DNA of 64,000 nt from an uncultured Thermoplasmata archaeon (GCA_963713145.1 CAVQKI010000005.1:95166-159165), one strand, 5' to 3'. Positions 9,191-55,489 are shown, counted from the stretch's first letter. Program-made: numbers and translations. Notes: generated by a model not told the origin, from the sequence alone.

Positions 9191-12112
9191 ATGACCGACG
9201 CGCGGCCGCCGCCCACCCCGAAGCAGGTGGAACTGGAATCGCGACGACTCTGGGCGTCGCGCCAGGTCCCGGCGGCCGATGGATCGCTCGGTCCGGAGAA
9301 CGGTCCGCTGCTCCGGCAGTTCCTCGGCACGTTCGCTCCTGGCGACTCGCCGGCCCTGGTCGCGCACCGGGCGGTCTCGGCAGACGTGGACGCGCGTTAC
9401 CTCTCGCTCTCGGGACGGCGGGTTCTCGGAACTCTCCGACGCGAAGGCTGGCCGGTCGAGGAACTCGACCCCAACGTCCACGCGCTCCTGGTCGCGCTGG
9501 GAGTATGGACCGGAGGGACGCGCGGAAGGCCGTGGGAAGCGGCCGACTGGCACGCCGGCGTCCAGGGGATGATCTCTCGCCTCGCCCAGCGCGGGGTCCT
9601 TGTCGTGCGCGACGGGCCGCTGCGCGTCTGCACGACGTGCGCCGCGCCCCGGAGCCCCGAGCGGATCATCTACCAGCAGGAGCTCGGCGATGCGTACCTC
9701 GTGCGTTTCCCGCTGCGCGGGTCCGACCCGCCGGTCGATGCGCTCGCCTGGGTGGACGCCCCCTGGCGGCTCCTGGCGACGAGCGCGCTCCTCGTCAACC
9801 CCGAGGTCACCTACGCCATCGCCGACTACGTGCGGAAGGACGCGAGCGTGAGGCTCCTCACGGCACGTTCGTCGCTCGACCGGCTGAAGACATGGCTTCC
9901 GGGCTCCACCCTCACCCTCGTCGAGGAGCACGCCGGCCGCGAGCTCGTCGGCCGACCGTATGCCTACCCGCTGCGGCACGAGTTCCCGATCGGCGGCGAC
10001 CTCGCTCCTCCAGCCGGAACCATCCAAGCGGTCGCGGACGTCGGCGATAGCGGGACCGGGATCGTTCCCCTGATCCCCGGGCACGGCGGAACGGACGCCC
10101 AGATCGCGGAGAGGCTGGGTATCTCCGGGTGGCCGCTCCTGACGCCGCACGGCCAGCTCGACCCGACGCTGATGCACCAGTACCTCCGGGCTCGACGTCG
10201 AAACCGCGAACGAGTTCGTCGCTCGCGACCTGACGGAGAGCGGAGCCGTGCTGGCGAGGCTCCGCGTCCTTCGTGGGGTGCCCTACTGCGCCGTCTGCGG
10301 CCATCCCCTCGTGTGGATGCCGGGGCGCGCGTGGTGCCTTGAGATCAAGAACCTGCCGGCCGAGGAGATCAATCGGTACGCCCGGCTCCTTCCTGGCGAC
10401 CGTCCGATCGGCCAGATCGAGGTGACCCCGTGGCCGGTCAGCGCGACGGTCTCCTCCGTCTCTCCCGCCGCGATCTCGCTGCTCGAATGCGGGCGGTGCG
10501 AGCGACTGGACGCCCCCGAGGCACCCCTCAAATGCCCGTGCGGCGGAAACCGCCGCCTCGTCTCGCGCCGGCTCCTGCCCTCGATCGCGGGCACCTTCTC
10601 GGCGTGGGCCCGGAACGAGCCGGTTTCGCCGGCGGATTCGGTGCGGGTCTACTCCAACGAGCGCCGCCGGGCAGCCACGCTCGTCCACCATCTCGCGGCG
10701 ATGGCCGGGGTGCGCGGGGCAGTGGCGGATGTGGGCCTGACCCTTGTCCCGACCGTGGGCGGTATCGACATCGGCGGGCTGATCGACGCCCACGGGGCCG
10801 ACGCGGTCCGGGCGGCGTTCGTGCGCGCCGAGGTCAGCGAGGGTGCCTCCGGGACGTTCCCCGAACGCTGCCGGCAAGAGGCCGCCCGCCTGGCGCGGCT
10901 CCGAGCCCTCGCGGCCGACGTGCTCGCCCGATGCGGCGGGCCGGGCCGCGCGGCGGAGCTGAGCGAGCCGACGGTAGCCTCCGACCGGGAGCTCGAGCCG
11001 GAGGACCGGGCGATCCTCGCCCGCTGGGCCCGGGCGAGGCTTCTCGTCATCGCCGAGTACACTCGCTGGAATCCCGCGGGCGCCCAGCGGCACATCTACC
11101 GGTTCGTCGGAGGAGAGCTCGAGGAGTACCGGTCGTTCGTTCACCCTCGCCTCGAGCTCGCGGACATGCCGACGAGCAAGCGGGCGGCCCTGCGTACCCT
11201 CGCCCATGTCCTCCGTTCCTGCGCGGTGGTCCTCGCGCCGATCGCGCCATTCACGGCCGAATCGATCCACCGGACCCTCGTCGTGGAGACGCTCAGCCTG
11301 TTCGAGCGGTCGGACCTGAGCTCGGACTCGGCGGCGGACGAGAGGCTCGCGGTCGCCTGGGACCGGTGGCACGACGTTGTCGCGGCGACCGACCGGTTCC
11401 GAAGGGACCGCCACCTCGCACCCACGACCGTCCTCCCTTCCGCGGTCCTGGTCATCGCGAACGACGCCGACGCAGAGCGCCTGCGCGGCGACAGCGCCGT
11501 GATCGAGAAGCTCGCCCGAGTGGCTCGCCTTGAGGTCGGCAGTCCCGGGTCGCCGTGGGCGGGCCACCGGCGACGCCTGGTCGCGGTGGAGAGCGAGATC
11601 CAGCGAGTCTACCCCTCGCTCGCCCGTCCCATCATCCATCTCATCAACCGTCTCCCTCCCCGGCGCCGGAGAGGACGCGAAGTCCGAGGAGCTCTCGGTC
11701 GTGGTCCAGGGCCAGCCGCGGCTCATCACGCCCGCGATGGTGACGACGGTCGACGTGCTGCCGGAGCGGACGGTCCCGGTGCCGTTCGCCCTGGGCGAGA
11801 TGTACTTGGAGGCGCCCGCCGCCAGCCCGGACACCCGGCCCGCCCCCCCACCGCTCTCCCCGGATGCGTTCTGGCTCCTCCGCCGTGTCGACCGCGCCCT
11901 CCGCCGGAACCCGGCGCAGGCCGGCGCGGAGACCCGCCGCGCCGCCGTGGCCGTAGCGGTCGACCCGCTCGCGACCGAGTTGAAGGACAATGCGACGACG
12001 ATCGCCCGCTACCTAGGGTTGGCCGAACTGCGCGTGATCGACCGATCGGAAGAAGCACCACCCCACGGAAGGATCACCGGCCGCACCCGCACGGGAGCCC
12101 CTTGGTGGGTGA
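9191..12112 (+). CDS. Class Ia (Ile/Val/Leu-type) aminoacyl-tRNA synthetase paralogue with degenerate catalytic motifs. Frame changes lie near 10250 and 11660 and the C-terminal boundary is uncertain.
   Basis: CP1/editing-region homology: LRVCTTCAAPRSPERIIYQQELGDAYLVRFPL, DSGTGIVPLIPGHGGTDAQIAERLGIS. Anticodon-binding-domain homology: LRSCAVVLAPIAPFTAESIHRTL. The HIGH position reads PGDSPALVAH and the KMSKS position reads TVGGIDIGG followed by the conserved GADAVRAAF. The three frames were joined by hand. Confidence 0.55.
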
Positions 12113-12208: not shown

Positions 12209-14243
12209 ATGGGGGAGGTCGACTACGCCGACGACGCCGTGGTCGCCCACGGCGAGGCTGTCCGCAACCTGGGCCAGGAACTCGACGGCCTTCTCGCTGC
12301 CCCGCTGCTGGGGCCGTCCAAGGTAGCGATCGCATGGGACGCGGGTCTGCGGTCGGTCCAGCAGTTCACCGACGCGCCCTTCGACACGCTTGTGGCCATC
12401 CCCGGTTTCGGCAGGGCCATCGCTTCCACGCTGTACGCCCATCTCGGAAAGCCGGTTCCACGCCCGCCACCGCTCGCTCGCACCCGCTCGCGGCCACCGA
12501 GGACGTCCTCCTCAGAATCGACCGTGACGATGCCGGTGGCGGCACCTCCGCTGCCCGGCTCGGCCGAGCGATCCGCACCGCCCGCACCGGCGCGTGCGGA
12601 GAGGCGTGCGATCATCGTGGCGCCTCCCGTCGTCCCCGCCCCGGTCGAACCGCCCGCGGTACTCGCGGTCATACCGCCGGCAGAGGTCGTGGTCGTCCCC
12701 ATTCCCGAGCAGCTCCCGACCCCCGCGATCGAACCGGAGGGCCCACCGACGGAGGCTATCGCGCCGCCGAGCGAGACGGTCGAACCGACACCGGAGGTTC
12801 CGGCCTCGGCGTCTCCGCCCTCCCCCGCGACGGACGCGCCCGAACCCGGTCAGGTCACCGGAAGCGTTGCCCCCACCGCAGTTCCCGAGCTCTCGGTGTC
12901 GCCGACGGAAACAGCCGCGCGGGAAGACGGTCCTCCCGCCGGCATGGTTCCTGGGCAGATTCGGGAGGAGCTCGGTCTGCCGGTCGCCGCGCCCGACGTG
13001 CCTGCTGCCGGGGCCGCGATCGAGGGCGGTGATACCGCCGCTGAATCCAACGCGCCGGCTGAGGAGACCGAGCCGGAGGCACCCGCTTCCGTGCCTGACG
13101 CGTCGTTCGCACCAGAAGAGTCGATGGTCGCCTCCGGGCCGGCGGCCACCGAGCCCGCGCTGGCGGGAGCTGCCATGACCGCCCCGGAAGCCGACTCAAC
13201 AGTCGTCGGCAGCGATACGGAAGAGTTGCCCGCACCGGAAGAGACGGCTGCTGGCCCCGGGCCGGCCATCGCTGAATCCGCGCCGACAGCGGCTGCGACA
13301 ACCGTCCCGGAGACCGAACCCAAGACAGAAGGTGGCGATACCGAGGTTCCGCCCGCACCGGAAGAGGCGATCGTCGCCCCCGGGCCAGCCGAAGCTGAGC
13401 CCGCGCCGGCCGTGGCCGCGATGAGCATCCCGGAGCCAGAGACAGGAGGCGAAGCCCACGACACCGACGTTACGCAGGCACCCGAGGCGCGGATCGCGAC
13501 CCCCGGGCCGGCCGTCGCCGAGCCCGCTCCGGCGGCCGCGGCGATGGCCGCCCCGGAACCTGAGCCGGAGGTCGGGGACGGCGACACTGGGGTCGAGCCG
13601 GCACCCCCTGCTCTCGAGATGGCCGGCACGGGGGAGGTGGCTCCCGCTCCAACGCCGGAGCCAGAGGCACCGGAACCCGCGCCGTCGGTTCCCGTTGTTG
13701 AGCAACTCCCGTCGGAAGCTCCTCACGCGCCTACGCCGGAGCCCGTCCCACCGCCGCCCCCGACGGGCCTCGAGGTCGACCTCTCGGAGTCGCTTCTCCC
13801 CGCCCTGCAACCGTTCCTCGAGGAGACCGGGGCGGGTCACCACGGCCTGGCGATCGTCCGAGAGATGCCGGAACGGATCCGGGCTCATGTCGGGCCGAGG
13901 CCGGTCGTCGTCTACTGGCTCACGAACCTGGTCCGCGACCGGACGATCAAGCCGAACGACCTCAACGCGGTCGCGGAACGATTCACCAAGGCACTGGACT
14001 CGGAGAGCGTGACCGCGGTCTTCTTTGAAGGGGTCGAGTACCCTGGTACACATCCACGGGATCGACCGGATCGTCGAACTCCTCCAGAGCATGGATGGCC
14101 GTCTCAGGGCCCACGAGGCTCGCGGGTGGCTCCACCTCTCGCCCAGCCTGATACCCGAGTCGGACGTGGGACGGATCCTCACCGGGCTCGGACGAACGCG
14201 CTCCGGGGCCGCCGACCCGGGCGCACCGGCCCCCTCTGGATGA
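12209..14243 (+). CDS. DUF835-domain protein with an N-terminal helix-hairpin-helix motif and a roughly 450-aa Pro/Ala/Glu-rich low-complexity linker. A frame change lies near 14040.
   Basis: HhH-like LVAIPGFGRAIASTLYAHLG. Long PAPEPE acidic region. C-terminal DUF835-like pattern VVVYWLTNLVRDRTIKPNDLNAVAERFTKALDSESVTAVFFEGVEY / LVHIHGIDRIVELLQSMDGRLRAHEARGWLHLSPSLIPE, split over ORFs 12209..14317 and 14025..14243. Confidence 0.55.
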
Positions 14244-14313
14244 GGGCATGGGCCGGCGGAGTGTCCGCCGGAGAAGGCTTATCTCGGTCTATGGATGGGT
14301 CGGACCGGCACCG

Positions 14314-15100
14314 ATGAGGGAGCAGCGTGGGATCCGGTTCGGCCGGCGGACCGCCCACCTCGCTCTCGCCGCGTCCCTCACGCTGCTCCTTCTCCTCCCC
14401 GCGTCCGCGATCGGGGACCACGTTGGTCTCTCGGCGACTCCCAAATCCGTCTCCGTAATCCCGGCAGCTTCCGCCGGACCGTTCGACGCGGAAGTCTTCT
14501 GGAACGGCGCGAACGCCGCCTCCGCGAACTCCGCTTCGTCCGCGTTCACCTACACCTCGGGAGAGACCGCGAACGCCACGTTCCACTTCAACGGAACATC
14601 CCTCGTCGTTCCGCCCCCGTCCATCACGAACGCGAGCCTCACGCTCACGTACTTCGGGATCGCGCTGACGACGAACACCGGCCCGTTCCACTCGATCGGC
14701 GGGAGCGCTTCCGAGGCGAGGATAAACTGGTCGTTCGGCCCCCTGGTTCAGCTCACCGAAGGCGTGTACCAGCTGAGCGCGAAGATCACCAACACGACCG
14801 GGGCCACGATCTGGAGCGAGTCGTTCTACATCCACGTGAAGGCTCCGTACCTCTATCGAATCCGGCCTCGTCGTGTTCCTGATCATCCTTTCGCTGGCCG
14901 AGATCTACTGGATCGCCGCCTCGATCCGGGGGGCTCGGGGGAGGAAACCCAAGTTCGCTCAGGTCAAGGGCAGTGAAACCGGAGGGGATTCCGAGGCAGC
15001 CACGACCCCGATCACCGAGGGGTCCGCCCCCGGCGGCACGCCGCCGTCGACAGGACCTGGAACGCCCCCCACGCAGCCACCGGCGGGAGGTGCGCCGTGA
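14314..15100 (+). CDS. Secreted or surface protein with an N-terminal signal peptide, N-glycosylation sequons and a C-terminal TM anchor followed by a basic tail. A frame change lies near 14850.
   Basis: MREQRGIRFGRRTAHLALAASLTLLLLLPASAIG is a signal peptide. NATF/NGTS/NASL/NTTG are sequons. In the next frame the C-terminus reads GLVVFLIILSLAEIYWIAASIRGARGRKPK..PGGTPPSTGPGTPPTQPP. Confidence 0.45.
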
Positions 15101-15434: not shown

Positions 15435-16634
15435 TCAGCGCGCTGCCCAGCTTCGGCCCTCCGGGGCCGCTCCACCCCCTTCATCCGGGAGCGCTCGAGA
15501 CCGTCGTCCACGACCAGGTCGGCGTCGCGTGGCGGGTCCCCAGCCTCCGGCCAATCCGGCCGCGCCCGGCGGGGGCCCGCCCGGTTCGGGAGCATACGCG
15601 CGCCGCAGCCGGAAGAAGAACACCAGGACGATCGCGAGGAGCGGGAGCGTGACCGGGATCGGGAGCGTGATGAGGAAGCCGAAGATCGCGAGGAAGAGCA
15701 CAAACCCGAACGCAAGGTCGACGAGAAGTCGTTCGTTGCCGACCGTGCCGATCCCGCGTCGCACGACCTCGAGCAGGACCGCGAAGATCGCCACCTCGAC
15801 CGCGATCAGGACGGCCGGGGGGACTCGCGTCGACGTGAACCCGTACTCGAGGGCGAAGGCGATCGGGAAGAACGCGAACCCGACCGCGCCGACCTGCCAA
15901 CCCCGCAGGGTGGGGTGGCTGTTCCGAGGGGTCCAGAGCCGGACGGGCGCCCGGTACGCCGCCAGCACGAGAAGAGCGATCGTGATCGACGCTCCCGCCA
16001 GCAGCGGCCAGCCCATCCAGAAGTGGAACGCGGAAGCGACCAGCACGGTCTCGCTGAGGGTAGCGCCGGCCAGGGCGACCAGCGCAAGGACGATCCCACG
16101 CCGACCGAGGAGGGAACGACCCCGGGTTGCCGGGATCGCAAGGCCGAGGAGGAGGATGGGAAGCCCCACCGAGAAGATCACATGGTACGCGAGGACCCCG
16201 GTCGACCAGACCCAGTTGACGCCCGCGTAGCGGCCGAACCAACCGAGGACGCCATCCGCCCCGTGGCTCGAGTTGAAGAGCGTGTTGTCGCCCAGGCCCT
16301 CTTCCGTGATCCCGTAGGCGAGGCCCAACAGGAAGACCGTCCCCCACCCTTTCTTCCATCGGATCACCGCTTCCCGGACCAGCAGGGCACCCGCCGTGTA
16401 CTGACCGACGTTGATCGCGATCTGGAGGAAGAAGAACACCGGACTGCTCGCGAGCGTGAGGAACGAGCTGGACGAGGCGACGTACTCGGGGATGCCGGGC
16501 GTGAGCAAGGCGAAGCAGACGATCGGGTGGGACCGGAGGGTATCGAGCCACCGCGGCCGGCGCCGGGGCGACGCGCGTTTCAAGGGCGGCGGCGCGTCCG
16601 CCGACTCGGCGGGCTCGGTCGGGAGCGACCCCAC
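15435..16634 (-). CDS. Polytopic integral membrane protein of unknown function. The R/P-rich C-terminal approximately 45 aa may be read-through.
   Basis: At least eight hydrophobic helices (FALLTPGIPEYV..., VFLLGLAYGITEEGLG, VLAYHVIFSVGLPILLLGLAI, LVLAAYRAPV...). The antisense 585-aa D/E/R-rich ORF 15342..17099 is an artefact of this gene. Confidence 0.5.
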   Translation of the reverse strand: MGSLPTEPAESADAPPPLKRASPRRRPRWLDTLRSHPIVCFALLTPGIPEYVASSSSFLTLASSPVFFFLQIAINVGQYTAGALLVREAVIRWKKGWGTVFLLGLAYGITEEGLGDNTLFNSSHGADGVLGWFGRYAGVNWVWSTGVLAYHVIFSVGLPILLLGLAIPATRGRSLLGRRGIVLALVALAGATLSETVLVASAFHFWMGWPLLAGASITIALLVLAAYRAPVRLWTPRNSHPTLRGWQVGAVGFAFFPIAFALEYGFTSTRVPPAVLIAVEVAIFAVLLEVVRRGIGTVGNERLLVDLAFGFVLFLAIFGFLITLPIPVTLPLLAIVLVFFFRLRRAYAPEPGGPPPGAAGLAGGWGPATRRRPGRGRRSRALPDEGGGAAPEGRSWAAR

Positions 16635-16767
16635 GACCGCTCGATGGCCGGTAGGTCTACTTCAACATGGTTCCCCGGTCCGGCCCGCGCGCGGGACCTC
16701 GTCCCCCGCGCCGTCCTGGCGAGCCTGGCCACGGTCGCTTTCGTGCTGGCGGTGGCTGTTCCGCAAG

Positions 16768-18107
16768 CTAGAGCTCGGGCCGGTCCAGTAGCTTCGGGGG
16801 TCCGGCGCGGACCCGCCGGTCACCCGCGTCCCCTGGCTCCCACGCTCGCAGGCCCTGCTCCCGCGGGCGGCCCCCGCCGCCCGGAGGCGTGGGCGTTCGC
16901 GAGATCACCCAGTAGAGGAGCGCAACGGCGAACGCGAGAATCACCCCGAACAGAACGCCGGCGCTCGTCAAGCCGATCTGCTGGGACGCTTCGGCCACGC
17001 CGATGGTTGGGACGGCGAGCGCGAGGTACCCTGCGAGGTAGAAGCCGGCGAGCATCTCGCCGCGCGCGTCCTCGGGCGCGACCCGGTCCACGAGCGTGAC
17101 GCTGCCCATGAACGTGAGACCCACCGCGGCGCCCAGGGCCGCCGTCACGATCACGACGAGCTCCCAGGCGGTCAGCGGAAGGATCAGTACCGAGGGCCAC
17201 GAGCGTGCCGATCATGAGCGGGAATCCGACCAGTAAGGCCCGACGATCGCGGATCTGGGAGGTCCCGAGCTGGGCGATCGCCGCCGTCCCGAACATCAAC
17301 GCCACGACCGCCGCGGCCGCGAGGGGGCTCGAGATACGGAGCCCGCCGCGGACGTACGACGGAATGAGCGCGGCGAAGAAGCCGTAGATCGAGTAGCACG
17401 CCGCGATCCCACCGACCGCAACCCAGAACGGCCGCCGAACTCCCACCGGAACGGAGACGCGCTGGACGTGGAAGCCGGGGCGCGAGTGGATCGCGGACGC
17501 CGTTTCGGGCGTGGCGGCGATCGCCAGAACGCCGACCAGGCTCGCGACGACCGGAAGCAGGTAGACGAGCCGCGTTGGGTCCGGAGCGTACCTCGGCCAG
17601 GAAGCCGCTGAGCGTCGCCCCGATGGCGAACCCGCCGAAGTTAGCGGCCACCGCGACCCGCGCGACGTGATGCTGGTCGCGGTACGGCTCCAGGTCGCTC
17701 ATCGCGGCGGTGGCGACGCTCGTCGTCGCCCCGACCGCGAAGCCGGCGATGAACCTCGCGAGCGCCAGCCAGAGCACGTCCGTGGCGGACTCGAAGACGA
17801 TGGCGGCGAGAATCGTGAACGCCATGCCCACGTAGAGCAGGTTCCTCCGACCCAGCTGCTCGGCGTGTGGGGCGACGAAGAAGAGCGTCAGGAAGACGCC
17901 CGGAGTGTACGCCGCGAACGCCAGCCCCAACACTCCCGCGGAGAAGTGGAGACGCTGCTCATAGAGCGGGTAGAGCGGTGTCGGAATGGCCGCCGCGAAC
18001 GACGTGGCGGCGAGCGTGTACGCGGTCCAGCGAAACGCTCCTCGAGGTCCGTGGATCATCAGGCGCTGGATCCCAGACGCGTTCGGGGGATCGGGTGCGT
18101 CGGTCAC
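16768..18107 (-). CDS. MFS-type transporter split into three fragments by frame changes (about 17160 and about 17440).
   Basis: Fragments 17184..18107, 16820..17446 and 16768..17154 are all multi-TM, collinear, with MFS-like helices (LGLAFAAYTPGVFLTLFFV..., FIAGFAVGATTSVATAAMSDLEP). Confidence 0.55.
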
Positions 18108-31394: not shown

Positions 31395-32519
31395 CTACAG
31401 GATCTTCCCCGCGCGAACGACCGGCGTGCCGTCGACGGAGATCTCCGAGCCTGCGAGGTTGACGGAGCCATGGAAGTCCGAGGCGTTGCTCCCCCCCAGG
31501 TAGGCGTTCCGGCCCACGGCGAACTCGATGATGCCGCGCTCCGAGTGCTCCAGGTACGGCACGTTGACTAGGCTGGGGTTCAGTCCGATCGTAAGCGAGC
31601 CCGCTCGGTTCTTCCCCGGCGTACCCCTAGCGTAGTTCCGGGCGAACGTCGACTCTCCCTCCTCGAATGAGAAGGAGGTCAGCTTCCCGTCGGAGAACTC
31701 GAACGCGCCGCCCGAGTACACCACCCAGGGGAACCAGGTCTCGTCGTAGCTGCGTCGGTTCGAAACGATCCTCCCCTGGGCCGTCTTGGCATCCAGGGCC
31801 ATGCGGACCCTCCCGTCGGGGAAGTTCGCCAGCATGTCAAACTCGCTGAAGGCCCGGTCCTTGGGGTGGGGGTACCCTTCGTAGAGCCTCGGAGGAACAC
31901 CGGCCAGGGCCACATCAAGGTCTGTCCCGTTGGGGTGCGTGATCCGGACCTTCTTTGTGCCGCTGAAGGCGCGAGCGAGGCGCTTACCGCTCTTGGCAAT
32001 CTCCTCCGGGTCGGCAAGGCACCCCTCGAGGAGGGCCTTCATCCACCGCTGCTTGCTGACCCCCCATTGACGGACTCGAGAGTCCGTTACCCACCCCATT
32101 GCCATCCGTCCTCCTCGCAACCCGGTCGACCGGGCGAGCTTGTACCACCGGTCGAACCAGCCATCGGCCCATGCGTCCAAGCCTTTCTGCCCTCGCTTCT
32201 CCAACCGGGCCGAGTCCGCCGGGCCCCAGAACTGCACGTAGACGTCGGCCGCCGCGATCGCGGCCCATTCCGGGTCGGACAAGCGGCCGAGGGGCCTGGC
32301 CTGTTTGCGTTCCACCGCGCGCCACCATGCGTTGTCGTCCTCGTATGCCAGGAACGCACTCCCGCCGACCCGGCGCACCCCGTCCACCATCGCCGACGAC
32401 ATGGAGAGCGTGTGGGTCCAGGCTTCGACGATGACGTTCTCGCCGGGCTTAATGCGGAGGTAATTCACGACCAGGTTGCGGGCGGCGGCGCGTTCGAGGG
32501 ACGAGGGACTCAGGCTCAT
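31395..32519 (-). CDS. Aminopeptidase, M29 (PepS/AmpS, thermophilic metalloprotease) family. Assignment is tentative.
   Basis: 374 aa with family-like segments ...VIVEAWTHTLS..., ...GIIEFAVGRNAYLGGSNASDFHGSVNL... Length is as expected. Assigned from overall family resemblance, not a fixed signature. Confidence 0.6.
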   Translation of the reverse strand: MSLSPSSLERAAARNLVVNYLRIKPGENVIVEAWTHTLSMSSAMVDGVRRVGGSAFLAYEDDNAWWRAVERKQARPLGRLSDPEWAAIAAADVYVQFWGPADSARLEKRGQKGLDAWADGWFDRWYKLARSTGLRGGRMAMGWVTDSRVRQWGVSKQRWMKALLEGCLADPEEIAKSGKRLARAFSGTKKVRITHPNGTDLDVALAGVPPRLYEGYPHPKDRAFSEFDMLANFPDGRVRMALDAKTAQGRIVSNRRSYDETWFPWVVYSGGAFEFSDGKLTSFSFEEGESTFARNYARGTPGKNRAGSLTIGLNPSLVNVPYLEHSERGIIEFAVGRNAYLGGSNASDFHGSVNLAGSEISVDGTPVVRAGKIL

Positions 32520-37158: not shown

Positions 37159-37341
37159 TCACTCCGGACGGGCCGGCGTACGCGACGCGGCCATAAGTTT
37201 CCGGCGGTAGGAGCCGTAGCGGTCGCTGGAGTCGTATCGCGCGGGATGCGGGGTGCGCGTGGGGGCTCGGCAGGAGGGACAGGCGTCGCGGAACGTGTAG
37301 CGGTCGCACGCCCGGCACACGCGAAGGATCGATTCGGTCAT
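37159..37341 (-). CDS. nop10: H/ACA ribonucleoprotein subunit Nop10.
   Basis: MTESILRVCRACDRYTFRDACPSCRAPTRTPHPARYDSSDRYGSYRRKLM has the Nop10 zinc ribbon. It is in the conserved position immediately after aIF-2alpha, with a start/stop overlap. Confidence 0.8.
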   Translation of the reverse strand: MTESILRVCRACDRYTFRDACPSCRAPTRTPHPARYDSSDRYGSYRRKLMAASRTPARPE

Positions 37342-38115
37342 GCGCGCGCGAACGTCCCCTCCCCGCCGGAAGCCTTGATCGACTTGAGCGCGGCCTCGGT
37401 CGCGCGTTTCATCGTCTCCTCGGCCGTCTTGTACCTGCGTCGACTGCACACGGATCCGGTAGCGGGGAGCGCCGACATATTGAACATCCACCGAGGCAGG
37501 GTCGACCTGCTCGGCCGCCAGCAGGGCGTCCCGGACATGGCCGAGGCCATCCGGGGACCGGTCGAACACCTCGAGCGTCCCGAGGATGGTCACGTGGGGG
37601 GGAACGATGTTCTCGCGGGCGACCTTCAGGAACGCCGTCGTCCACGCCGCCTTCTCGTTCTCCTTCGTGAACCGAGCCGGGTCGGCGGAAGCGACCTCGA
37701 ACGCCGCGAAGAGGGAGCTGTATCGCTCGATCAGGACGGGCCCGAACTGCTCGACCGCCTCGTCCGCGGTCTTGCTGAGCGCCTGGGCGACCTGTTCGAT
37801 CAGGCGCATAGCGCGCTGTTCGTTCTTCCAGGCCTGGATCTTCTCGCGGCGCTGGTGGTCGTTGATCCGCTTGAGCGAGAGGTCGATCTGATTCTTCGAG
37901 GTGTCGATCCTAAGGACCCGCGCTACGATCTTCTGGCCCTCGCGGATGTGGTCACGGATGTACTTGACCCAGCCCGCGGCGACCTCGGAGAGGTGGATGA
38001 ACGCCTCGCGGTCCGCGTACTCGTCGAGCTTGACGAACGCGCCGAAGTTGCGTATCGACGTGACGGTGCCGACGACGAGCTCGCCTTCTTCAGGGTACTC
38101 TGCGCGCAGGGGCAT
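37338..38115 (-). CDS. Translation initiation factor 2 alpha subunit (aIF-2alpha). One frame change lies near 37450.
   Basis: The N-terminal S1 domain reads GELVVGTVTSIRNFGAFVKLDEYADREAFIHLSEVA. The C-terminus YKTAEETMKRATEAALKSIKASGGEGTFARA is in ORF 37338..37550. Confidence 0.8.
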
Positions 38116-48611: not shown

Positions 48612-48732
48612 CGAACGGAACGCGCCGGGCTGGCTCTTGACCGACCGTCTACATAGGGATAACCCGGCGCTCTCCTTTCACGGTTCGCGTCCTTCACCCT
48701 CTCCAAGACACGGAGCGGCCCTCGACCCGGTC

Positions 48733-51125
48733 GTGCAGAAGCCGACGGGTGCCCGCCGGGTGGGCCGGGCGACGGCCTGGGTGTTCGCACCACAGGCCGA
48801 GGCCCTGGCCGTTCGGGAGGAGCCTGCCCGTTTCCGCGCCCGTCTCGACTCGGTCCTGCGGGCCGGACACGGGGTGGGGGTCACCTGCACGCTCTGTCTC
48901 GAGAGCGGGTCCGCGGAGCCCCTTGGTACTCACGACCGCAGATTCCGCCAGCGAGCGCTGGGTCGACCGGGTTCTGGCCAGCGCCTACGACCCCGGGCAG
49001 TGGAGGCGGACCCTCGTCCCACCCGCGGGGGAAGGCCGGTGGTACTCCGCGCGCAGACGTTCCCTGCCGAGTGAGACGGGCAGCCCTCCGCCGGAACCGG
49101 GCGCGATCCTCCGCACGCTCACCCAAACGTTCCGCACTCTTCCACGCGGAGTCGGCGTCCGGATCTCGATCGCCCCGGTGCGTGCTCACACCCGGCTCGA
49201 GCACTGGTCGCGTTGGCTTCCGGCCCAACCCGTCGAGCGGCCAACGCGACCGCTCGGTAGGACAGGCGAACCCGGTCGGCATCAAACGACGCCGCTGCAG
49301 CCGCTTCCCCCTCCGGCGCTCTGGAAGGCCGACGTGGTCATCGCCGAGCGAAGCCGAGCGATGGCAGCCGTCCATGGGTCCGTCGTCGCTGCGGTAGAAG
49401 CCGCCTGGCGTCGACTCGACGGCGTAGGGATCCGATTCACGCCGATGAGGGGTTTCGGCATCCGACCGTCCGGATTTCTGATTGCCGAGCCGGAGGTGCT
49501 TGGTCTCCTACCCGCCCGGGATGGCCCTCCGGCACAGAGGTCCTTTCCGGAGCCCTCCACGACGGTGCTGCCGCTGGGCCGAACGATCGGAGGGTCGGTG
49601 GTGGGCGTCCCGGTCGACTCTCGCCAGGGCCGGCATCTCGCGGTCGTCGGCGAGACCGGTATGGGAAAGAGCTCGCTCTTGGTCGCCCTCGCGTCACGAG
49701 CCGCTAGCCTCGGCGGAGTCGTCGTACTCGACCCTCTGGGAGAGACCTCGCGAGCGATCCGGTCGGAACTGGCCCCCGCCGCCGCTCGGGTTCTCTGGGT
49801 CGCTCCGGGGGAGGGCCCCCCGTCCATCAACGCGCTCGAAGGGATCGGTCGCGAAGGAGCCGCCGATCTCGTCCTTGTGGAACGGCGGATCGACGACATG
49901 GTCCACGCCCTCCGCCGCGTCCGCTCGGGCCGGTACGCTGATTCGTCGTTCTGGGGTCCCCGCTTGGAGGAGATGCTCGGCCGAGCCATTCGAGCGGCGG
50001 CCGCGATTCCGGGGGGTACGCTGGCGGACGCGCACACCCTCCTGGCCACGATGGGCCGGAGCCGCCAGGTCGTTCCTCCCTCGGCCCGGGACGCGCTGCG
50101 CGAGCTCGCCGAGCGAGTGCGGGAGCGTCCCGAGGATGCCGAAGGTGCGCGCCGACTCCTCTACGAGCTCGCGCGGAACCCGACCCTGGAGCAGATGCTC
50201 TGTGCGCGAGCGCCGTCCCTCTCCGCTCGGGAGTTCGTGGCGCCCGGTCGGATTGTCCTCGTTTCCGGAGACGCGGCCCGCGTCGGGGAGTCGACCGCGC
50301 GGTACCTGTTCGCGGTCTATCTCGCCCTCCTTTGGTCGGAGCTCCTGTCCCGGGAATCGCCCGCGAAGACGTTCATGATCCTGGACGAGGCTCAGTGGTT
50401 CGCGCACGAGAGCCTCGCGGAAATGCTCCGGCTGGCCCGTCGATTGAACGTTCACGTGATCCTGGCCACGCAGTCGATCGGCTCCCTTCCCGAGGTCGTC
50501 CGCGACGCGGTCTGGACGAACGTGGCGGATTTCGTCGCCTTCCGCGGGTCCCCCGACGAGGCGAGGGAGCTGTCGCGGACCGCGCGCGGGGTGCCCTCCG
50601 AGGCGATCCTCGCCCTTCCTCGGGGAGAAGCCGTCGTCTTCCTCGGCAAGGGTGAGGCGGTCCGCTGGGTACGAACGACCCGATTGCCTCAGGCGGTAGA
50701 TCGGCCCGGCAGGGCGATCGGTCGTCCGGCCGTCGTGGAAGATGCTGCGGCGGCGGAGGCGAGGGTTCGCTGCGCCAATCCCCCCGAGAGACCCGGCACG
50801 GCCCTCCGGGGCGAACGGCCCGAGGGCGAGCGTTCCGACGCCGAAGGGGTCCTCGAGGCCGTTCGCACCCTTGCGTCCGCTTCGGCCTCGGAAGGGCCGA
50901 TCGAGGTCGGTACTCGACCAACTCCGATCTCGGCCCAGATCGGGCACCGACCACGCGATCCGTCGTGCGGGCGCCGTGCTCGGGCGAGCTGGGGCGTTGA
51001 TCCGGGTGGAGCGGGGGCCGCGGGGAACGGTGTGGTGGGTGGACCCTGGGCGAATCCCCGGCCGAACGGCGGCCGACTCTCGGCCTGCCGCCGAGACGAC
51101 TTCCCGAGCGCCACAACCCTCTTAG
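48733..51125 (+). CDS. HerA/FtsK-like P-loop ATPase (DUF87 / TraG-VirD4-like core). One frame change lies near 48900 and the C-terminal boundary is unresolved.
   Basis: Walker A HLAVVGETGMGKSS, Walker B TFMILDEAQWF, arginine-finger region HVILATQSIGSLPEVVRD. The main frame stays open into the next gene. A stop at 51123-51125 exists only in an alternative frame. Confidence 0.5.
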
Positions 51126-51148
51126 TCTCCTACCGGCTCGTTTTCTCG

Positions 51149-51952
51149 ATGGAGGGCCCCGCGCCTGCGGCGGCGGAACCCGTACCGGCGCGACGGGTGG
51201 AAACGGCGACCGTTCTCGAGCGCTGCGTCACCGGCATCGAGGGGCTGGACAACATCCTCGGAGGGGGGATCCCCCGCGGGAACACCGTCCTCATCGCGGG
51301 AAGCGTAGGGACCGGGAAGACGACGCTGAGCCTCGAGTTCCTTCTTCGCGGAGCGGAACGCGGAGAACGCTCCCTGTTCCTCTCGGTGACCGAGGCGTCC
51401 GGGAAGCTCGTCCAGAACCTCTCCACGTTCGAATTCTTCCGCACCGACCTCGTCGCCGACGGCTCCCTCGTCTTCGTGGACCTCCCGGTGGTCTACGAGA
51501 AGCTCGGGCTGGAGCGAGAGGAACTCTCGTCGGACGAACTGGACATCCTCCTGCGGACGATCCGCGACATGGTCCGGGCGCTGGGCGTGAAGAGGCTCGT
51601 CCTGGACAGCCTCACTTCGCTCTGCTACCGGATCCGCACCGACGAGCAGATCCGGGAGTTCGTGCTGCGCCTTGGGGAGGAGATGAGCGCCATCGGGTGC
51701 ACGTCGCTCCTGGTCTCCGAGATCACGCCGACGCAGGGACGCTACTCCACCCGCGGCGTCGAGGAAGCGATCGTGGACGGGATCGTGCTGCTGTGGAACG
51801 CCCGTCGGCGCGGCGACATCCTCCGGGTGCTTCAGATCGTGAAGATGCGGGGGTCCGCCCATTCGCACGCGCAGTACGTCATCGAGCTCACTCCGATCGG
51901 CCTTCTCATGACGCCGCACTTGAAGGGAAACCGGACCGAAGAGGAGGGCTGA
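51149..51952 (+). CDS. KaiC-like / RecA-superfamily ATPase (single-domain archaeal KaiC homologue).
   Basis: CVTGIEGLDNILGGGIPRGNTVLIAGSVGTGKTTLSLEF (Walker A), RLVLDSLTSL (Walker B), IVKMRGSAHS. Confidence 0.7.
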   Translation: MEGPAPAAAEPVPARRVETATVLERCVTGIEGLDNILGGGIPRGNTVLIAGSVGTGKTTLSLEFLLRGAERGERSLFLSVTEASGKLVQNLSTFEFFRTDLVADGSLVFVDLPVVYEKLGLEREELSSDELDILLRTIRDMVRALGVKRLVLDSLTSLCYRIRTDEQIREFVLRLGEEMSAIGCTSLLVSEITPTQGRYSTRGVEEAIVDGIVLLWNARRRGDILRVLQIVKMRGSAHSHAQYVIELTPIGLLMTPHLKGNRTEEEG

Positions 51953-51955
51953 CGG

Positions 51956-52540
51956 ATGACCCCGGGTGACATCGGGGACCGTCTCCGCTCGCTCCCGCCC
52001 GGCACCGCGGTCGCCCTCAAGCTCGACCCCCGCGAGTACGCCGACCAGTACTTCGCGGTCCTCAGCGCGGCGCTCCGGGACGTGGGGAGCGACACGAGCA
52101 CGCACACGATCTACGTCGCGGTGACGAGCCCGGCCTCGTTCGTCTGGTCGCTCGCCCAGGCGCTCGACGTCTCGTCGGACCGGATCTCGTTCGTCGACGC
52201 CATCAGCCATCTGATGATGCGCTTCGGCGACCCGCTTCCGAACGCCACGTACGTCGAGAGCCCCCGGGCCCTCGAGTCGATCATGCTCCGTGTCGAGTAT
52301 CTCCTCCGCCGGTCCAAGAGCCCCCGGTCCACGGTCATCATCGACAGCGTCAACTCGCTCGCCGTCCACAATCCCCCCGAGCTCCTCTCGGAGTTCCTCC
52401 ACATCCTGCTGAACAATCTGAAGAGCCGTCAGGTCCTGACGCTCGTGCTGGAGACGACCGAAGAACAGGCTGCGAGCGTCGAGCAGCTCCTGAACCTCGT
52501 GGTCGACGAGACGATCGACGTCGCGCGGCTGGGGCCCTGA
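51956..52540 (+). CDS. DUF835-like domain protein (no nucleotide-binding motifs), starting 4 nt after the upstream KaiC-like stop.
   Basis: TVIIDSVNSLAVHNPPELLSEFLHILLNNLKSRQVLTLVLETTEEQAASVEQLLNLVVDETIDV matches the DUF835 C-terminal pattern seen in the 12209..14243 protein. Confidence 0.45.
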   Translation: MTPGDIGDRLRSLPPGTAVALKLDPREYADQYFAVLSAALRDVGSDTSTHTIYVAVTSPASFVWSLAQALDVSSDRISFVDAISHLMMRFGDPLPNATYVESPRALESIMLRVEYLLRRSKSPRSTVIIDSVNSLAVHNPPELLSEFLHILLNNLKSRQVLTLVLETTEEQAASVEQLLNLVVDETIDVARLGP

Positions 52541-52542
52541 CC

Positions 52543-53308
52543 ATGGCGGAGGAATCCCCGATCCTCGGGATCCCCGAGATCGACCAGCCCCTCACTTCGG
52601 CTCTGCCGATGGGCTGGCTCGCCCTGCTCAAGGGGTCGACGGGCGCCGGCTCGTCCGTCCTGGCCAAGCAGTTCGCCCATGCGGGCGTCGGTTCCGTTCC
52701 GGTGCTGTTCTACACAACGTACGAGCGCACCGAGGACGTGCGCCAGTCGTTCAGCGATTTCGGTTGGGACCCGGACGGGGTCAAGATCGTCAACCTCGCC
52801 GATGAGTACTACGAGCGCGTCCTCGTCCGCGGGCTGGAGGTCGCGAAGGCCCGGGAACGGGGGCTGGGATTCGAAGGACTCGTCCGCGAGCAGCTGGGCG
52901 AGCGCCCCGCGACGACCTTCCGGCTCACCGACCGGATGCTCGCGGACCTCCAGGCGATCGACGCACCGTTCCGGCTTGTCGTCGACTCGATCGACTTCTT
53001 CTTCGAGATTCTGGCCCCTAGGGATGTCACCACGGTGGCCCGACAGATTCGCCACCGGTGCCGAGACGATCGGCGGCCAGGCCCTGATCACGCTCCACAC
53101 CTCCGTGGGGGACCGGGCCACGGCGGCGGTGCTCCAGGACCTCGCGGACGTGGTGCTGGACCTCCGCGCCGAGCCGGAGGCCGACCACTACGCCCACACG
53201 CTCTCGGTCGAGAAGGTGGGGAACCGCCCGAACCTCACGCGGATCTGGAAGGCGTCCCTTGGCGAGACCGGCTGGGGCGTCCGGGCCCCCGGGTCGACCT
53301 CGCGATAG
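52543..53308 (+). CDS. KaiC/RecA-like protein with a degenerate Walker A (GSTGAGSS, no Lys). One frame change lies near 53050.
   Basis: LTSALPMGWLALLKGSTGAGSSVLAKQFAH; Walker B-like RLVVDSIDFF. The C-terminus LITLHTSVGDRATAAVLQDLADVVLDL... lies in ORF 52679..53308. Confidence 0.5.
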
Positions 53309-53373
53309 CGGCCTACGCCCACGCCACCGAACCCTTATCCCCGTCGGTCGGCTCGTTCCGAGGAGGAAGACCC

Positions 53374-54160
53374 GTGGAAGACGTGCTGATCCGCCCGCTC
53401 GAGAAGGTCGACCTGAAGGACCCGATCCTGATCGAAGGTCTCCCGGGCGTGGGCAACGTCGGAAAGCTCGCGGCCGACTATCTCCGCGACCAGCTGCACG
53501 CCAAGCCCCTGGCCACGATCTACTCGAAGTTCTTCCCGCCCCAGGTCTACGTGAACGAGTCGGGGATCATACGGCTCGTGTCGAACGAGATCGCCTACTG
53601 GAAGGCGCCGGCCTCCGCCGCGCACGATATCCTGATCCTCGGCGGGGATTTCCAGGGGATCAGCCCCGAGGGCCAGTACCGAGATCACCGAACGGGTCCT
53701 CAGCTACTGCGCGACGCTCGGCGTCAAGGAGGTCTACACCCTCGCGGGCTTCGCCCAGGGGCGCGTGATCGAGGAGCCGCGCGTACTCGGAGCCGCCACC
53801 CTGCCCGCCCGGGTGGAGGCGATGAAGAAGTTCGGCGTCCATTTCTCGCGGAACGACCCCGGAGGGGGTCTGATCGGCGCGAGCGGCCTCTTCCTCGGGC
53901 TCGGGCGCCTTTTCGGTATGGAAGGGGTCTGCCTGATGGGAGAGACGAGCGGCTACTTCGTGGACCCCCGGAGCGCGGAGGCCGTTCTGAAGGTCCTCGC
54001 GCGCGTCCTGCACCTCGAGGTCGATTTCACGGCGCTCGAGGCCAAGGCGAAAGAGATCGACCGGATCGCGCAGAAGATCCACGAAGCAGAGCAGCGGACG
54101 ACCGAACCGACCCCCGGCTCGCCGGCCGGGAGCCGCGAGGACCTCGGGTACATCGGCTGA
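53374..54160 (+). CDS. PAC2-family protein (proteasome assembly chaperone-like, PbaB-type). GTG start is preceded by aggagg. One frame change lies near 53680.
   Basis: ILIEGLPGVGNVGKLAADYL...NESGIIRLVSNEIAYW...ILILGGDFQG. After the shift it reads EITERVLSYCATLGVKEVYTLAGFAQGRVIEEPRVLGAAT...CLMGETSGYFVDPRSAEAVLKVL. Confidence 0.6.
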
Positions 54161-54199
54161 GGGCGGCGCCTGGCACCCGGCCCGGTAGCGTCCCGAACG

Positions 54200-55489
54200 G
54201 TGGCCGGCGTGTTGAGCGACGGAGACCGAGAGCCAGCGATCGCGGAGCGGCTGCGCTCCGCCTCGGACGCGTCCGGATTCGTTCCGTTCGACCGGTTCAT
54301 GGACATCGCCCTCTACGCGGAGGGGGTGGGTTTCTACGCCCGAGCGGGACCCACGCTCGGCCCCCGCGGTGACTTCTACACGGCGGCGCACGTGCACCCG
54401 CTCTTCGCGCGGTCGATCGGCCGCAGACTGACCCAGGTTCGAGAAGCGCTGGGGGACGAACGACCGTTCTCGGTCGTCGAGGTCGGACCCGGTGACGGGA
54501 CTCTCGCGGAGGGGGTCATCCGAGCACTCGGTCCGGCGACCAAGAGCGGTGGGCCGATCGACTACGTCCTGCTGGAACGTTCCGTCCCCCTGCGCGCGCT
54601 CGCGCTCGAGCGCGCCCGCGCCGCTGGTGCGGCGGCCGGGGTCGCGGTCCGGACCAGCACGGGTCTCTCAGCGGACGGCCCGTTCTCCGGTGCCGTTCTC
54701 GCCAACGAAGTCCTGGACGCCCAGCCGGCCCGGAGGCTGCGCTGGACCGGGAGCGCTTGGCTCGAGCTGGGCGCGCGATGGGAGGGCGATCGACTCGTGC
54801 CTGCGGAGACTACGCTCACCCGCCCGCTCTCGGGGATGCCACTTACTCCGGTGCCGCCTCCGGACACAGTAGTGGAGGTCTCGCCCGCGGCCGAAGCGAT
54901 CGTCCGAGAGGTGGCCGACCACATGGCCCGTGGCCTGTTCGTCCTGCTCGACTACGGAATGGAAGAGACCGAGCTGTGGTCCGCGCATCCGTCCGGGACG
55001 CTCGCGGCGGTGCGCCGCCACCACTCGGTCAACGACCCGTTCGGTGCACCTGGCAGCACCGACCTGTCCGTGTTCGTGAACTTTACCCGGATCCGCGAGG
55101 CGTGCACGGCGGCGGGACTCGTCCAGCTCGAGTTCGGCCGCCAGGCGGAGGCTCTTGGACGCTGGGGGTTCCCGGCGCTTCTCGAGACCGAGCTCCGTGC
55201 GGCGCGCTCCCCCGAAGAGGAGGTTCGAACGCGGCTCGCGACGAAGAACCTGCTCTTCGGCTTCGACCGGTTCCAGGTGCTCGAACTGGCGGCGCCCGAG
55301 AGCGCGGACGTACTGTCCCTGGCTCAGGCCGGAGGACCCAGCGCTCGGGCGATGATCGATTCCGCGACCTTCGAATCCACAAGGATCTTCGCGGTGTCGG
55401 GCGGAAGGGAAAGGATGTCGTCGTTCCGGATGTCGACCGTCTCCGGCCCGACCTCGATCGGCCGACCGTCCTTGACGACCCGTACGTAA
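54200..55489 (+). CDS. Class I SAM-dependent methyltransferase, DUF185 (MidA/NDUFAF7-like) family. The 3' approximately 150 nt overlaps GINS51 and may be read-through.
   Basis: FSVVEVGPGDGTLAEGVIRAL is the Rossmann motif I. Family-typical DYGMEE and FTRIREA segments. Confidence 0.65.
   Translation: MAGVLSDGDREPAIAERLRSASDASGFVPFDRFMDIALYAEGVGFYARAGPTLGPRGDFYTAAHVHPLFARSIGRRLTQVREALGDERPFSVVEVGPGDGTLAEGVIRALGPATKSGGPIDYVLLERSVPLRALALERARAAGAAAGVAVRTSTGLSADGPFSGAVLANEVLDAQPARRLRWTGSAWLELGARWEGDRLVPAETTLTRPLSGMPLTPVPPPDTVVEVSPAAEAIVREVADHMARGLFVLLDYGMEETELWSAHPSGTLAAVRRHHSVNDPFGAPGSTDLSVFVNFTRIREACTAAGLVQLEFGRQAEALGRWGFPALLETELRAARSPEEEVRTRLATKNLLFGFDRFQVLELAAPESADVLSLAQAGGPSARAMIDSATFESTRIFAVSGGRERMSSFRMSTVSGPTSIGRPSLTTRT

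Follow-up and report, generated by a model that had tools for sequence, protein, structure and literature searches.

Few regulators of the archaea are as abundant as the KaiC-like ATPases, or as little understood, and the rings that KaiC-type proteins build act as nucleotide- or phosphorylation-dependent switches. The described systems that come closest to the genes discussed here are linked to archaeal pili and archaella: KaiC-family arCOGs are strongly associated with type IV pilus (T4P) loci, where they are predicted regulators (Makarova, Koonin and Albers 2016, PMC4858521), and the KaiC-like proteins ArlH and CirA regulate the archaellum and pilin-dependent motility (PMC10983859). Our subject is a group of five genes at positions 48733 to 54160 of a 64,000-nucleotide stretch of DNA (GCA_963713145.1 CAVQKI010000005.1:95166-159165; the whole stretch is called the window) from an uncultured Thermoplasmata archaeon, which encode, in this order, a P-loop ATPase (HerA-like), a KaiC-family ATPase (KaiC1), a small protein that we call g3, a second KaiC-like protein (KaiC2) and a homolog of the chaperone PAC2. 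A first reading, made from the sequence only, had taken all five for one transcription unit and a single novel multi-ATPase system. We think, with a probability of roughly 0.6, that the region consists instead of three separable units, namely the KaiC1-g3-KaiC2 operon, the HerA-like gene and PAC2, which share a strand through lineage-wide synteny. The trio is a real and uncharacterised operon of KaiC-like hetero-paralogs, and its kind would be one already known, that of the T4P-associated archaeal KaiC-family ATPases.

Three KaiC-like paralogs in a row

KaiC1 is unambiguously a single-domain ATPase of the KaiC family: it scores 188.4 bits against the Pfam KaiC profile (PF06745, cut-off 26.6) over profile positions 3-228 of 231, and its own profile, run against PDB sequences, matches KaiC at 2e-67, PH0186 at 5e-46 and Sso2452 at 1.5e-22. 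Walker A (GSVGTGKT), Walker B (DS, mostly as LDSLTS) and KMRG are invariant in 19 orthologs, and judging by these motifs the protein is probably catalytically active. It does not look like a circadian KaiC, which has duplicated CI and CII domains, for it is a single domain of 267 amino acids, it reaches 145.9 with the NF006799 model against a cut-off of 408, and the neighbourhood gene lists hold no KaiB-like gene.

KaiC2 retains the fold and the family match (51.5 bits with Pfam KaiC for the corrected sequence) and is a divergent KaiC paralog that appears from its motifs to be a pseudo-ATPase. In the window GSTGAGSS stands in the place of Walker A; the lysine of this motif is missing from 20 of 20 aligned orthologs, and among the four third genes that were aligned from distant clades three have lost this lysine and one, at locus L093, has kept it. 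The Walker B aspartate and the lysine of the KMRG-equivalent motif (K224, invariant) persist, so that KaiC2 could contribute to a neighbouring site. The sequence-only reading had paired one canonical with one Walker-A-dead KaiC-like protein, and the motifs of KaiC1 and KaiC2 bear this out, with g3 as a third, degenerate protein of RecA fold.

This g3 is a RecA/KaiC-fold protein of 194 amino acids without a P-loop, and its family carries the motifs ESPxxLE, DSxNSLxxHN and SEFxH. Across 20 g3 orthologs Pfam gives KaiC below threshold in all 20, DUF7504 in 19 and Elongator Iki1 in 17 (best E 1.2e-3). It had earlier been described as DUF835-like, a label that has to be given up: none of the 20 orthologs matches DUF835 (PF05763) at E ≤ 0.1, and only distant members of the family come to 19 bits, the cut-off being 33.1. 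At the level of the family the label is therefore wrong, although g3 and DUF835 both fall within one broad assemblage of KaiC-like domains that have degenerated. The distant relatives were reached through a representative protein library, in which the family comprises 775 representative clusters, a profile search of a set of 5.8 billion proteins having given close orthologs only; its members include proteins of about 190 amino acids that stand alone, and domains at the C-terminus of giant TPR/SNAP proteins or of proteins with DUF835. In the protein P0277 a g3/DUF7504-like domain lies C-terminal to DUF835, and three proteins of 920-1767 amino acids (P0289, P0309 and P0310) combine TPR/SNAP and CARDB/BatD-type domains with a C-terminus of the same g3/DUF7504-like kind, a hint that the P-loop-less KaiC-like domain is used repeatedly as a module for output or as an adaptor.

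A genuine DUF835 protein is nevertheless encoded elsewhere in the window, at 12209-14317 on the + strand (PF05763, 38.8 bits against the same cut-off); for g3 the proposed DUF835 link fails the Pfam test. The protein at 12209-14317 carries a helix-hairpin-helix at its N-terminus and, as a linker, some 450 amino acids of low complexity in which Pro, Ala, Glu and Thr are frequent; the profile match ends at position 87 of 136, and the 3' end of the gene may be frameshifted.

The three genes are tightly packed, with the junctions TGAcggATG at 51950-51958 and TGAccATG at 52538-52545, just as first described, and with median spacers in the clade of 3 nt between KaiC1 and g3 and 2 nt (or a 4-nt overlap) between g3 and KaiC2. 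In this arrangement KaiC1, g3 and KaiC2 form a translationally coupled unit, and one may reasonably infer that their products would make a hetero-oligomeric ring.

With its three different paralogs of RecA fold, of which two are degenerate, the trio also calls to mind Elp4/5/6 or the BCDX2 and Shu complexes, and it could on that pattern be a RadA/Rad51-paralog-like or Elp456-like hetero-hexamer working on nucleic acid, as a recombination mediator or tRNA-modification accessory, rather than a regulator of signalling or pili. The Iki1 (Elp5) matches of g3 lean in this direction, as do a PAXNEB (Elp4) match of KaiC1 at E 4.5e-3 and the translation and RNA-modification genes in the surroundings. 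All of these matches are, however, below threshold and no better than generic RecA-fold similarity. The g3 profiles find no significant match among PDB sequences, the broad one meeting Elp5 merely at E 0.37, and hhalign comparisons of g3 with KaiC1 (E 0.063) and KaiC2 (E 0.29) are weak, the diversity of the alignments being low. Given further that KaiC1 is so clearly of the KaiC family, that the pilin genes found next to the trio in other clades (see below) point elsewhere, and that neither Elp3 nor a recombination gene is adjacent, we hold such a nucleic-acid complex to be highly improbable.

The trio in other lineages

Outside the clade of the window, every distant g3 homolog comes after a KaiC1-type gene, the two in most cases overlapping by 4 nt. 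A metagenome-assembled genome (MAG) of the Methanomassiliicoccales (locus L087) has a KaiC-g3 pair with a pilin gene nearby, L090 has such a pair followed by a pilin gene and L091 the pair, while L089 has the full trio followed by two pilin genes and L092 and L093 have trios; the HerA-like gene and PAC2 are absent from all six. A metagenome scan with an alignment of seven sequences added 80 further loci, mapped by tblastn, and these are very consistent: KaiC1 lies directly upstream of g3 wherever the locus is informative (63/63), KaiC2 is the third gene in 53, and a pilin gene follows within 1 kb downstream on the same strand in 58 of 60 informative cases, with Pfam confirming the downstream gene as Pilin_N in the two loci L095 and L147. 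Neither a HerA-like gene nor PAC2 occurs in any of them (0/80 for each). The pilin link is thereby seen in at least three diverged lineages, and the adjacency fits both the published association of KaiC-family proteins with T4P loci (PMC4858521) and the precedents of ArlH and CirA (PMC10983859).

One transcription unit or several?

Within the clade, a scan of one genome per GTDB species returned 116 relatives of the HerA-like protein, of which 80 loci were kept; all belong to MAGs of Thermoplasmata/Thermoplasmatota, Ca. Lutacidiplasma silvani included, at HerA-like identities down to 37%. The gene order is near-invariant, running from Nop56, fibrillarin and DRG (opposite strand) through HerA-like, KaiC1, g3, KaiC2 and PAC2 to a methyltransferase and, further on, L15e (opposite strand), and this neighbourhood is conserved, housekeeping flanks and all, in more than 70 MAGs of the soil Thermoplasmata clade. 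Conservation in related genomes had been set beforehand as the test of the cluster, with chance juxtaposition as the outcome that would speak against it, and the order is indeed conserved; since the housekeeping flanks are conserved equally, synteny within the clade cannot show a functional linkage.

The spacers are more informative. The five genes do lie on the + strand with the starts and ends first given to them, and the "0-4 nt gaps" read from the sequence hold inside the trio (3 nt and 2 nt), but the window has 23 nt between HerA-like and KaiC1 and 65 nt between KaiC2 and PAC2, where the clade medians are 24 nt and 65 nt. Both of these wider spacers carry conserved elements. Upstream of the KaiC1 ATG, each position between -38 and -1 has an information content of 1-2 bits over 33 non-redundant loci, where positions further upstream have 0.1-0.6; in the window this 38-nt element covers the last HerA-like codons, whose third positions are conserved too, the TAG stop (51123-51125) and the 23-nt spacer. 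It includes a TATA-like box, CTCTTAG, about 24 nt before KaiC1, the TAG of which doubles as the stop codon of HerA-like. Between -45 and -15 a TATA-like motif precedes 51 of 74 KaiC1 genes, 0 of 72 g3 genes and 0 of 71 KaiC2 genes, and the box of KaiC1 (CATTTTAG, GTTTTAG or CTCTTAG) stays at the same distance from its start where the HerA-like gene is 0.1-4.5 kb away. A Shine-Dalgarno-like motif is lacking before KaiC1 and present before g3, which fits a leaderless first gene followed by internal genes of an operon. Upstream of PAC2, about 32-48 nt from its start, stands a box (ACCGAACCCTTATCCCC) resembling a TFB-recognition element (BRE) and TATA box, conserved as CGAACCTTTATC or CGTTATCT across the loci compared; a TATA regex matches before PAC2 in 50 of 62 loci, a CGAACC-TTTATC box is conserved there, and a GGAGG Shine-Dalgarno-like motif directly precedes the GTG. 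We regard the KaiC1 and PAC2 boxes as predicted promoters belonging to these two genes.

The genes have, moreover, come apart in evolution. The spacer between HerA-like and KaiC1 exceeds 600 nt (0.6-4.5 kb) in 6 of 65 loci, and a DUF1697 gene on the opposite strand has been placed between the two in L067, L069, L070 and L080. In L074 the HerA-like gene is followed directly by PAC2, the trio is missing, and the 440-nt gap (12349-12786) contains no remnant of it; a tRNA-like 3' stretch in this gap was not confirmed by ARAGORN or Rfam. The 4.5-kb insert of L067 (12334-16670), which holds its DUF1697 gene on the opposite strand, also encodes three paralogous proteins of about 205 amino acids, each with one N-terminal hydrophobic segment and a C-terminal C-x3-GTCP and without a Pfam match, and a Pro/Ser-rich protein of 512 amino acids with a Cys-rich C-terminus. 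The small proteins look like pilins, but they have no Pilin_N match and we do not count them as such.

PAC2 itself was correctly recognised as a PAC2-like chaperone gene. The two halves into which a frameshift divides it score 64.9 and 77 bits with PF09754 (cut-off 25.8) and 91 and 133 bits with TIGR00162, matching along the whole length, and the ortholog in the related soil contig L001 is intact, with 261 amino acids and PF09754. It is an ordinary homolog of proteasome assembly chaperones, and a neighbour rather than a member of the KaiC operon.

What, then, becomes of a single five-gene system? It can point to the shared strand and short gaps, to an order that survives in over 70 MAGs, even where HerA-like identity has dropped to 37%, and to a spacer between HerA-like and KaiC1 of exactly 23 nt in most loci. 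Yet the housekeeping flanks are just as syntenic, promoter-like boxes are conserved before KaiC1 and before PAC2, a subclade tolerates an opposite-strand gene between HerA-like and KaiC1, L074 keeps HerA-like and PAC2 without the trio, and elsewhere the trio or pair does without either of them (0/80 each). We consider one operon of all five genes very unlikely and no longer maintain the sequence-only reading on this point.

Our own reading, of three separable units, has of course to face some awkward observations, which we bring together here. The predicted KaiC1 box CTCTTAG is weaker than others in the genome of the window, and it overlaps a conserved C-terminal peptide (PQPS, then the stop). 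Of the 72 loci of the clade that are informative, some 70 have HerA-like next to the trio, in most cases with exactly 23 nt between them, and an adjacency so nearly universal leaves room for read-through co-transcription and for a functional link. As for the pilus, L091-L093 have no annotated pilin, and the 80 pilin-linked metagenomic loci form a single clade that is fairly tight (49-58% identity), for which reason the pilin adjacency could also be lineage synteny; and since tblastn finds no pilin gene beside the trio either in the window or in the clade of the window, it is other lineages that supply the link to the pilus.

The HerA-like ATPase

The corrected HerA-like protein, at 796 amino acids, has the same length as its closest homolog, P0001, and most other homologs have about 780-800. 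It is a soluble P-loop ATPase of the FtsK/HerA superfamily with an N-terminal alpha/beta region of about 270 amino acids; its ATPase core has a helical insert, and a disordered linker leads to a winged-helix-like C-terminal domain. The original assignment to the FtsK/HerA type stands at the level of the superfamily, but the closest fold neighbours of the core are VirB4, TrwB and DptH rather than HerA, and no secretion or conjugation partners lie nearby. The core fold with an all-alpha insert that marks the type IV secretion system (T4SS) ATPases VirB4/VirD4 is present, and a VirD4-type membrane anchor is not, the protein having no transmembrane segment (the maximum KD19 is 1.86, at the P-loop strand). 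In the neighbourhood gene lists there is no T4SS or relaxase gene, the neighbours being housekeeping genes. The protein does not qualify as a HerA helicase, judged by equivalog score, NurA/Mre11/Rad50 partners and HerA as closest fold match, and the NCBIfam models of VirB4 and HerA remain far below their cut-offs (TIGR00929 gives 21 against 643). No viral relatives were found, plasmid collections not having been searched, and PHROGs gave nothing informative. A PADLOC match to mad8 of MADS (2.6e-21) spans the ATPase core only and comes without other MADS genes, and we read it as generic similarity of the core. The HerA-like protein is a lineage-specific ATPase akin to VirB4, TrwB and DptH, probably hexameric, and we think that it probably handles nucleic acids.

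Two observations concern the region upstream. In one subclade a divergently oriented smc-scpA pair (Table 1) replaces the Nop56-fibrillarin-DRG block, and this adjacency, together with the winged-helix-like tail, gives weak hints of a DNA-related role for the HerA-like protein. The divergent intergenic region between DRG and HerA-like contains, at window positions 48676-48687 and some 50-70 nt away from the start codon of DRG, the motif TTTCACGGTTCG. A loose regex retrieves it from 38 of 71 related loci; it does not resemble a TATA box and could serve regulation.

One can imagine that this ATPase and the KaiC trio are functionally coupled only in the soil Thermoplasmata clade, PAC2 excluded, with the KaiC ring regulating or loading a DNA-translocating VirB4/TrwB-like ATPase, for instance in DNA transfer, uptake or chromosome handling. 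The adjacency in nearly every member of the clade would then make sense, a core of the DNA-translocase or coupling-protein type with a winged-helix-like domain would be a suitable client, SMC-ScpA lies divergently upstream of HerA-like in L078, L079 and L081, and the KaiC1 profile matches Sso2452, single-domain KaiC-like proteins of this sort being RadA paralogs. The case is nonetheless one of adjacency, between genes that have separate predicted promoters and that are separable in evolution (L074, the DUF1697 insertion); the neighbourhood gene lists contain no nuclease, relaxase, membrane channel or pilus gene; and the HerA-like protein, with 37-50% identity within the clade, evolves much faster than the trio with 60-80%. 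Such a clade-specific coupling seems to us unlikely. A stronger version, in which the ancient KaiC1-g3-KaiC2 module, pilin-linked elsewhere, has been re-wired in this clade to a lineage-specific, soluble VirB4/TrwB-like ATPase whose winged helix would bind DNA, as an undescribed KaiC-gated nucleic-acid translocation machine, perhaps for DNA exchange or chromosome handling, we would call quite unlikely, and the notion that the HerA-like ATPase is a new client of the KaiC ring falls somewhere between unlikely and quite unlikely.

Gene models and other features of the window

The window has a G+C content of about 70%, and a contig from a soil MAG labelled "Thermoplasmata archaeon" (L001/L007) is 90% identical to it in nucleotide sequence over 8 kb around the locus. 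Relative to L001 the window has six 1-nt insertions, in the genes for the DRG GTPase (~48033), HerA-like (~48922-48929 and 50912), KaiC2 (53063), PAC2 (53679) and the methyltransferase (55320). All six fall within 8 kb, each shifts the frame of a conserved gene, and none lies in a long homopolymer. Every frameshifted gene is intact in L001, conserved housekeeping genes among them, and for this reason we treat the insertions as assembly errors and not as pseudogenisation; they suggest an unpolished or error-prone assembly, in which other open reading frames (ORFs) of the window may be broken likewise. The insertions account for two ORFs that are artefactual fusions, one of 1067 amino acids (48749-51952) joining HerA-like and KaiC1 and one of 609 amino acids (52543-54372). 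The gene models in Table 1 were corrected by removing the 1-nt insertions on comparison with L001.

Table 1. Positions of the genes and predicted elements, in window coordinates unless a locus is named
Feature	Position	Strand	Description
HerA-like	48733..51125	+	796 aa after removal of two 1-nt insertions
KaiC1 predicted promoter/5' region	51111..51148	+	conserved ~38 nt with TATA-like box CTCTTAG
KaiC1	51149..51952	+	267 aa, Walker A intact
g3	51956..52540	+	194 aa, no P-loop
KaiC2	52543..53308	+	254 aa after removal of the insertion at ~53063; no Walker A lysine
PAC2 predicted promoter	53326..53342	+	BRE/TATA-like box ACCGAACCCTTATCCCC
PAC2	53374..54160	+	261 aa after removal of the insertion at ~53679
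smc-scpA	L078 5234-9804; L079 3328-7907; L081 5081-9663		divergent from HerA-like

Some further features deserve mention. At 37159-38115 on the - strand, S1 and eIF2-alpha domains and Nop10 are found in a single ORF that corresponds to two separate overlapping genes in L001, and this is probably another fusion induced by an indel. Long ORFs (374-983 amino acids) with high G+C at third codon positions and without a Pfam match at E ≤ 1e-4 occupy 4034-5215, 5633-8584, 9191-10342, 15435-16634, 26880-28538 and 31395-32519. In L001 a TnpB (Cas12f1-like_TNB) ORF at 16684-17952 adjoins L15e and is not called at the matching place in the near-identical L002, and this looks like a recent insertion polymorphism of the IS200/IS605 type.

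A possible mechanism and a comparison with known systems

In the mechanism that we favour, KaiC1-g3-KaiC2 would be an autonomous operon with a promoter of its own, its co-translated products assembling into a hetero-oligomeric ring of RecA/KaiC type. ATP would be bound and hydrolysed by KaiC1 only, giving the ring a single type of catalytic site, while the part of g3 and KaiC2 would be structural or regulatory. The parallel with ArlH, CirA and KaiC, and the position of the operon beside type IV pilin genes in other clades, make a nucleotide-dependent switch the most likely role of the ring, with an output at the cell surface (type IV pilus-like) or in other signalling. In the clade of the window the pilin neighbours would have gone, leaving the operon between a lineage-specific VirB4/TrwB-like ATPase and PAC2, itself an ordinary proteasome-chaperone homolog presumably transcribed from its own promoter.

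The interest of all this, to our minds, is that a compact and widespread module can now be defined, in which an active KaiC is joined by a P-loop-less partner that has a motif signature of its own and, in most cases, by a third paralog whose Walker A is dead. Its tight linkage to pilins in other clades makes it a testable candidate for how active and dead subunits build KaiC-type rings, and for what such rings control. The gene of the soluble VirB4/TrwB-like ATPase with its winged helix, for its part, belongs to the core genome of a soil archaeal clade that is abundant, and is uncharacterised. And that the five-gene "system" owes its appearance mostly to frameshift artefacts and to synteny throughout the lineage is a useful guard against over-interpretation.

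Set against known systems, the trio resembles Elongator Elp456 and the RAD51 paralog complexes BCDX2 and Shu in what appears to be architecture only, with no significant sequence relationship and no Elp3 or recombination context. PAC2 is like the PbaA-PbaB/PAC2 homologs in its matches to PF09754 and TIGR00162 along the whole length, with nothing unusual found, and differs in an adjacency to the trio that is confined to the clade of the window and in its own promoter-like box. Among the VirB4, VirD4 (TrwB) and DptH (DndH) ATPases of the FtsK-HerA superfamily, the HerA-like protein stands out in being soluble without a transmembrane anchor, in its own 270-amino-acid N-terminal region and winged-helix-like C-terminal domain, and in a conserved core-genome position with no T4SS, relaxase or Dnd/Dpt partner genes nearby. 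The g3 family belongs with the P-loop-less archaeal KaiC-like domains DUF7504, DUF7090 and DUF835, in that g3 and its distant relatives match DUF7504/DUF7090 at sub-threshold to threshold level; DUF835 is not matched by the g3 of the window or its 19 aligned orthologs, and g3 differs from all three in its own motif set and in being a stand-alone protein encoded after a KaiC gene. The closest parallel is with the KaiC-family ATPases of T4P and archaellum loci (arCOG01171, 01174 and 01175; ArlH/FlaH; Haloferax CirA), which KaiC1 resembles as a single-domain protein with intact motifs and, in other clades, in an operon immediately upstream of Pilin_N genes. It differs from them in the clade of the window, where no pilin gene is adjacent, and, above all, in the company that it keeps, the active KaiC being always paired with a P-loop-less g3 of 190 amino acids and usually with a Walker-A-dead third paralog as well.

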